Origin: Escherichia coli
Lineage (GTDB): Bacteria > Pseudomonadota > Gammaproteobacteria > Enterobacterales > Enterobacteriaceae
DNA length: 64,000 nucleotides
Reading direction: 5' to 3' (one strand)
Assembly (NCBI RefSeq): GCF_024223415.1
Contig: NZ_CP100500.1
The position numbers and the translations under genes were made by a program. Positions 42,289-42,866 of this stretch are shown here, piece after piece; positions within the stretch are counted from its first letter, which is position 1, and each line of letters opens with the position of its first letter. Under the pieces are notes generated by a model, which saw only the letters and a list, made by a program, of their open reading frames with translations, had not been told where the DNA came from and ran no database searches.

Positions 42289-42866
42289 ATGAGTGAAAAA
42301 AGCATTGTTCAGGAAGCGCGGGATATTCAGCTGGCAATGGAATTGATCACCCTGGCGCTCGTTTGCAGATGCTGGAAAGCGAAACACAGTTAAGTCGCGG
42401 ACGCCTGATAAAACTTTATAAAGAACTGCGCGGAAGCCCACCGCCGAAAGGCATGCTGCCATTCTCAACCGACTGGTTTATGACCTGGGAACAAAACGTT
42501 CATGCTTCGATGTTCTGTAATGCATGGCAGTTTTTACTGAAAACCGGTTTGTGTAATGGCGTCGATGCGGTGATCAAAGCCTACCGTTTATACCTTGAAC
42601 AGTGCCCACAAGCAGAAGAAGGACCACTGCTGGCATTAACTCGTGCCTGGACATTGGTGCGGTTTGTTGAAAGTGGATTACTGCAACTTTCCAGCTGCAA
42701 CTGCTGCGGCGGCAATTTTATTACCCACGCTCACCAGCCTGTTGGCAGCTTTGCCTGCAGCTTATGTCAACCGCCATCCCGGGCAGTAAAAAGACGTAAA
42801 CTTTCCCAGAATCCTGCCGATATTATCCCACAACTGCTGGATGAACAGAGAGTACAGGCTGTTTAA
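42289..42866 (+). pseudogene. flhC: flhC (flagellar master regulator subunit) interrupted by a -1 frameshift
   Basis: ATG at 42289 encodes [22 protein letters not shown] then shifts to a stop; the remaining FlhC sequence ([14 protein letters not shown]... Cys cluster) is the separate-frame ORF 42363..42866; span is 578 bp. Confidence 0.8.
42797..42823 (+). promoter_or_regulatory. sigma28 promoter for motAB-cheAW, inside the 3' end of flhC
   Basis: TAAA-N15-GCCGATAT read from sequence. Confidence 0.7.

Follow-up and report, generated by a model that had tools for sequence, protein, structure and literature searches.

The flagellar genes of Escherichia coli are expressed in an established hierarchy, which runs from FlhD4C2 to FliA and from FliA to the class 3 genes. 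In Shigella, flhD or flhC is disrupted by IS1. Loss of motility through lesions of flhDC in an otherwise intact regulon is long established, with examples in O157:H-, O177:H-, Shigella and laboratory evolution. In sorbitol-fermenting O157:H-, a 12-bp deletion in flhC hinders expression of the flagellar genes of later classes (Monday, Minnich and Feng 2004, J Bacteriol 186:2319, as cited in PMC6729007). Spontaneous frameshift and nonsense mutations of flhC abolish motility in K-12 (PMC5100188). The mouse gut and nutrient-limited chemostats both select for loss of flhDC, and about half of natural isolates have been reported as non-motile or poorly motile (PMC3116916). The K-12 mutants from biofilm, chemostat and mouse gut include flhC frameshifts at codons 96 and 136 in addition to nonsense mutations; an flhDC plasmid gave motility back to part of the non-motile isolates, and the selection was ascribed to the burden that flagella impose when nutrients are limiting (PMC5100188, PMC3116916). 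Three STEC O177:H- isolates of the SMN series were described as "nonmotile when isolated" (PMC5814490).

When the flhC lesion studied here was compared with these systems, likenesses and differences were observed. As in O157:H-, so far as that system is outlined in PMC6729007, a small lesion confined to flhC would account for non-motility with the rest of the regulon kept. However, the O157:H- lesion is an in-frame deletion of four codons (12 bp) elsewhere in flhC and causes no frameshift. The K-12 mutants share with the present lesion the operon and the predicted outcome. Laboratory and Shigella flhDC lesions are mostly IS insertions or large deletions, whereas the present case is a point deletion at codons 22-23 in a natural isolate. 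The deletion found in O177:H- is the same one (See below).

The window, that is, the whole stretch of 64,000 nucleotides that was analyzed, is a piece of E. coli chromosome collinear with approximately 1.956-2.018 Mb of K-12 in reverse orientation. Its gene order begins with fliI, fliC/fliA, uvrY, araFGH, otsBA, uspC and flhDC and ends with motAB-cheAW, tar-tap-cheRBYZ, flhBAE and torY. The features of the flhC locus and of the flagellar genes around it are listed in the table.

Table. Coordinates of flhC, its reading frames and the flagellar features of the window
Feature	Coordinates	Strand	Remarks
fliI (edge-cut), fliHGF, fliE, fliTSD, fliC, fliA, fliZ	2-19661		intact
flhD	41936-42286	+	116 codons; first gene of the flhDC master operon
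flhC	42289-42866	+	578 bp; 579 bp in K-12
Truncated frame from the native start	42289-42393	+	ATG 42289; 22 native FlhC residues and 12 out-of-frame residues; TAA 42391-42393
Residual GG of the wild-type GGG	42354-42355	+	codon 22 base 3 and codon 23 bases 1-2
Out-of-frame remainder of FlhC, residues 23-192	42354-42866	+	tblastn, 100% identity to K-12, frame 3
Track ORF with the FlhC remainder	42363-42866	+	165-aa product; frame other than that of ATG 42289
First possible internal starts of the FlhC frame	42363 (TTG), 42369 (ATG, Met28)	+
Sigma28 (class 3) motA promoter	42797-42823	+	TAAA-N15-GCCGATAT; pattern match, identical to K-12
MotR sRNA / motA 5' leader	42830-42924	+	100% identical to annotated K-12 motR (b4828)
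motA	42993-43880	+	downstream of flhC
motAB-cheAW, tar-tap-cheRBYZ, flhBAE	42993-57552	+	full length, no internal stops

In a base-level alignment against K-12 flhC, a check that had been proposed with the first-pass annotation, one G was missing from a GGG run, so that CTGGGC of codons 22-23 in K-12 reads CTGGC in the window (acccTGGGCgct in K-12 versus acccTGGCgct in the window). Besides the missing G, the gene differs from K-12 flhC by one synonymous SNP only. That a short G run had lost a single base had been proposed beforehand from the span of flhC, which is one base short of a multiple of three. Both the length and the single missing G held up against K-12, but the run itself lies at 42354-42355 and not at 42355-42360 as first placed.

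The native-start frame has 34 codons with a stop at codon 35, and the earlier reading that it terminates after about 34 codons was borne out by the TAA found there. By tblastn, FlhC residues 1-23 were placed in frame 1 and residues 23-192 in frame 3. When the G was restored in silico, a protein of 192 residues identical to K-12 FlhC was obtained, which is also identical to residues 1-192 of PDB 2AVU chain E (E-value 1.5e-130). In this restored translation, Cys137, Cys139, Cys140, Cys157 and Cys160 fall in the out-of-frame part; the zinc ligands, which we take from the 2AVU structure to be Cys137, 140, 157 and 160, are among them. The displacement of the remainder of FlhC with its Cys cluster into another frame, as described earlier, was thereby confirmed. 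The 165-aa downstream product matches Pfam PF05280 (FlhC).

Homology to the FlhC family therefore extends along the whole gene, as seen in the G-restored translation and in PF05280, and the operon context is that of K-12, with flhD upstream and motA downstream. A continuous frame of about 192 codons joining the N-terminus to the Cys4 zinc site is absent, and translation from the native start cannot yield a full-length FlhC. Judged by its sequence, flhC of the window is a pseudogene of the FlhC family and no functional member of it, because the frame breaks after codon 22 and is closed at codon 35.

We considered whether FlhC activity might be kept in spite of the lesion, through -1 frameshifting, transcriptional slippage or an internal start at TTG 42363 or ATG 42369 that leaves out residues 1-27. 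The C-terminal 170 codons are 100% identical to K-12, the FlhC frame is open from 42297 and overlaps the short ORF, and the 165-aa product is predicted by gene callers, all of which speak for this reading. However, recovery of the FlhC frame needs a -1 ribosomal shift, and no X_XXY_YYZ slippery heptamer was found in 42289-42393; wild-type flhC is read in a single frame in 5,349 genomes. No A or T run longer than 6 nt that could promote transcriptional slippage was found near the lesion, and the approximately 40 nt before TTG 42363 and ATG 42369, starts that would cost FlhC its residues 1-27, hold no Shine-Dalgarno-like motif. That the downstream frame is perfectly conserved has a simpler explanation, namely that the lesion is young. 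Furthermore, O177:H- isolates with the same allele are non-motile (PMC5814490), and in O177:H- the allele is accompanied by decayed cheA and sdiA genes, with cheZ decayed as well in a single strain, as expected after loss of function. A rescue of FlhC activity thus appears extremely improbable. In the case of the FlhC N-terminus, nothing specific on its role in the complex was retrieved from the literature.

The lesion being a deterministic feature of the sequence, the question was one of mutation or assembly error and not of chance. Suspicion of an assembly error was first aroused by the rarity of the allele and by the contraction of a G run beside a Dcm motif (CCTGG). The missing G could be a homopolymer under-call in the consensus of a long-read assembly, in which case flhC of the strain would be normal. 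PacBio-only assemblies do show false frameshifts through deletions in G/C stretches (PMC6729007), the IS1 copy and the IS605-family element held by the window suggest long reads, and close sister contigs have GGG. Contigs of the window's own lineage, found through its rare MotB variant, were therefore compared. The sister contigs with intact flhC and the same MotB variant are 99.95-99.98% identical to the window. One of them, L019 (SRR31139555, and 13 similar places), was compared with 10-kb flanks and is 99.981% identical over 20.9 kb, the differences being three substitutions and the flhC G. Another, L028 (and 9 similar places), also has GGG and an intact flhC. In contrast, L029, a Logan contig of run SRR19977205 (and 3 similar places), has the split flhC of 34 and 165 aa. 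The split between L028 and L029 was seen with short flanks. At the lesion site, the sister contigs read CCCTGGGCG, and the window and L029 read CCCTGGCG.

L029 is identical to the window at 100.000% over 4,227 bp (42227-46453), deletion included, and also has the private SNP of the window at 44692. It is a k-mer assembly made straight from reads and is independent of the assembly of the window, and its length of 26.8 kb points to accurate (short) reads in SRR19977205. This run could be from the window's own isolate; it would then confirm the allele in the DNA preparation and not in more than one isolate. The assembly error reading is further weakened by the surroundings of the lesion. In the approximately 21 kb common to the window and L019, no indel besides the flhC G was found, and 96 homopolymers of at least 5 nt and 47 other CCWGG sites were all unchanged. 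No frameshift was found in about 70 other genes of the window, and the same allele is undoubtedly real in the Illumina-polished O177:H- genomes (PMC5814490). We consider an error of assembly or consensus very unlikely. Because a read-level contig assembled independently carries the same deletion, the deletion is, as far as sequence data can tell, a real mutation.

Within 15-64 kb, just one further indel is specific to the window. It lies in the flhD 5' leader, where the run at 41855-41859 (77-81 nt before the ATG of flhD) is T5, as against T6 in K-12 and in 13 other loci. The contraction from T6 to T5 was considered as a sign of an error-prone assembly and then dropped, as it is a common natural allele: some 770 of 5,388 complete genomes, ATCC 8739 and O104:H4 among them, have the exact 81-mer with the T5 leader. 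Between uspC and flhD, position 41186 (29 nt upstream of the uspC start) is C in the window and G in every comparator examined, including O177:H-, CFSAN061772 and the sister contig L019. This C is a private substitution that can be placed, from the contigs compared, on the branch to which the flhC deletion also belongs.

The lesion had been called either recent or a homopolymer sequencing error. The first part of that statement stands, since L029 carries the deletion and the sisters have GGG; the second does not. The survey of related isolates for the same indel that had been advised gave one representative contig with the deletion (L029) and two with GGG (L019 and L028), each standing for the similar places given above. 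As the sub-clone with the deletion is nested in a lineage with a working flhC, the deletion is recent, and no decay was observed in any other flagellar gene of the window. It is very probable, in our judgment, that we are dealing with a genuine and recent deletion of one base (GGG to GG, codons 22-23), by which flhC became a pseudogene in a small sub-clone of a flagellum-competent E. coli lineage.

An audit of the whole window against sister contigs through other rare proteins failed, as all 19 further proteins looked up were common (140 to at least 1,000 contigs each). The window is also a recombination mosaic with a break near 20 kb. Up to 20 kb, where the fliC/fliD serotype alleles lie, it is 99.9% identical to CFSAN061772, a genome with intact flhC that matches the window at only about 99.1% from 20 kb onward. 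For 30-54 kb, no match above 99.7% was found among the complete RefSeq E. coli genomes (the best being 99.7% over 24 kb).

To assess the regulon, every K-12 protein of the region was translated and then compared with the window. Besides flhC, all 24 complete flagellar and chemotaxis genes of the window are full length, with native starts and no internal stop (fliH, fliG, fliF, fliE, fliT, fliS, fliD, fliC, fliA and fliZ; flhD, motA, motB, cheA, cheW, tar, tap, cheR, cheB, cheY and cheZ; flhB, flhA and flhE). The first-pass annotation was right that the remaining regulon in the window is intact, but its figure of more than 30 full-length genes was too high, as 24 complete genes and the edge-cut fliI were counted. 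This intactness refers to genes of the window, the flg cluster and fliJ-R lying outside it. FlhD is the same as K-12 FlhD in protein sequence; its gene begins with ATG and contains no internal stop. The genes from motA to flhE differ from K-12 by 0-3 amino acids, and the intact flagellar genes as a whole, with the exception of fliC and fliD, by 0-5. In the case of fliC and fliD, a different serotype allele is present with about 50% identity to K-12 and full-length ORFs. The fli genes at the start of the window have non-flagellar genes among them.

The sigma28 motA promoter sits inside the 3' end of flhC, and the MotR / motA leader segment ends in the flhDC terminator hairpin and a T-run. The promoter and the candidate MotR had both been pointed out before and are present base for base as annotated in K-12.

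Without full-length FlhC, the FlhD4C2 activator could not form, and without the activator the class 2 promoters, including that of fliA, would stay off. With fliA off there would be no sigma28 and the class 3 promoters (motA/MotR, tar and fliC) would be silent; silence of both classes would leave an aflagellate, non-motile cell. From this hierarchy, we infer silence of the motA promoter and of MotR, and the strain should be aflagellate and non-motile, as the first-pass annotation predicted for motility, the promoter and MotR. Analogy lends support to this, through the non-motile O177:H- isolates with the identical allele (PMC5814490), the non-motile flhC mutants of K-12 (PMC5100188) and the flhC deletion of O157:H-. 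The lesion therefore predicts an H-negative phenotype despite an intact fliC: serotyping by genotype would give an H type, and the phenotype would be H-. It also matters for physiological work with the isolate.

When the complete RefSeq E. coli genomes were searched with an exact 81-bp sequence of the deletion allele, five of 5,426 were found to have it. All five are STEC O177:H- (fliC H25): SMN013SH2, SMN152SH1, SMN197SH3, 2014C-3011 and OkiPb01679. PGAP calls flhC "frameshifted" in each of them. The O177:H- gene has the same CTGGGC to CTGGC deletion and the same 34-aa product as the window. However, O177:H- is 98.7% identical to the window over 40 kb, has another fliC, and differs in flhC by three other SNPs. 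Its lesion is also older. Internal stops are present in cheA and sdiA (by PGAP, and also in L005-L007), and 2014C-3011, which forms the L001/L002 pair with SMN013SH2, has a stop in cheZ too, whereas the window has no other damaged flagellar gene and its close sisters are wild-type. The stops in cheA, sdiA and cheZ agree with a relaxation of selection on the regulon once its master regulator was lost. The non-motility of O177:H- is not assignable to flhC alone, because cheA has a stop codon. The window adds one more natural case in which loss of motility begins at the master regulator, with structural genes decaying later.

Since near-identical sisters of the window have GGG, it is simpler to suppose that the deletion arose separately in the O177:H- and window lineages, unless a conversion tract of less than 377 bp imported it. 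Import by recombination from O177 was considered and set aside, given the GGG of the sisters and the O177-specific SNPs nearest the deletion, one on each side (42231 and 42608); a tract of the small size mentioned would still fit.

Inactivation of flhC is common in nature. The 5' segment of flhC is missing in 58 of 5,426 complete genomes and gives a partial match in 14 more. Among contigs with the 165-aa product, many independent lesions were observed within the first 27 flhC codons. These include a CAG to TAG change at Q27 in three backgrounds (L009, L010 and L017), an additional G (L011), a different one-base deletion (L012), loss of a C from the CCC run (L013) and an IS insertion (L014). 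The Q27 change is apparently another recurrent null allele. The three contigs with it are 99.41%, 98.72% and 99.48% identical to the window, respectively.

The same G deletion appears to have occurred at least two times independently (O177:H- and the window lineage), and other -1 alleles are found in CCCTGGG of flhC. This motif might accordingly be regarded as a preferred mutational route by which the flagellar regulon is switched off and perhaps occasionally on, a proposal to which we give little credence. The exact 34-aa truncated peptide is present in about 203 public contigs. Its cluster was dropped as evidence for a hotspot, since with a clustering threshold of 90% identity the break points are bound to coincide.

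A stronger form of the idea, in which CCCTGGG is a reversible, phase-variable motility switch, could draw on the identical deletion on two unrelated backgrounds, on the ON and OFF alleles that stand side by side in the window lineage, and on the other -1 alleles of this motif in public data. However, classical contingency loci have tracts of about 7 nt or more (typically at least 7 repeat units), and the tracts here are just 3 nt long (G3 in the wild type, G2 in the window and a C3 flank). In the window lineage, the deletion co-segregates with the SNP at 44692, which fits a single event. In O177:H-, the allele is fixed across more than 200 assemblies and followed by downstream decay, with no sign of reversion. 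The allele is also rare, occurring in the five complete genomes named above, and the clustering of the 34-aa peptide, being a product of the identity threshold, says nothing in favor of a hotspot. Because of the short tract, the co-segregation and the O177:H- fixation and decay, a phase-variable switch is scarcely credible.

We therefore return to the recent deletion. The event is an ordinary loss-of-function pseudogenization of the flagellar master regulator and of an already known kind. The same nucleotide change recurs in unrelated lineages, two in number, which makes the case mildly notable only; no new mechanism is shown.

Mobile elements were also observed elsewhere in the window. A complete IS1 copy of 768 bp is present at 24466-25233 and is 91% identical to K-12 IS1H. 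Its insertion point is near codon 5 of yecU, a small gene situated between sdiA/yecF and uvrY, and the copy is flanked by the target duplication GACCAATTA at 24457-24465 and 25234-25242. This copy is not found in the K-12, CFSAN061772 and O177:H- genomes.

The segment at 5020-9850 (fliE to yedK) stands in place of K-12 yedL/yedN/intG. Its genes, whose identities were judged by their translated sequences and by the names that PGAP gives in matching genomes, include an EmrE-like small multidrug-resistance protein, a YbcL/PEBP-like protein (5854-6405) and an AraC-family protein (6415-7212). An element of the IS200/IS605 family in the same segment has an intact TnpB/InsQ of 402 aa (8603-9811), and its tnpA is apparently split into two ORFs on the minus strand (8308-8595 and 7921-8256).
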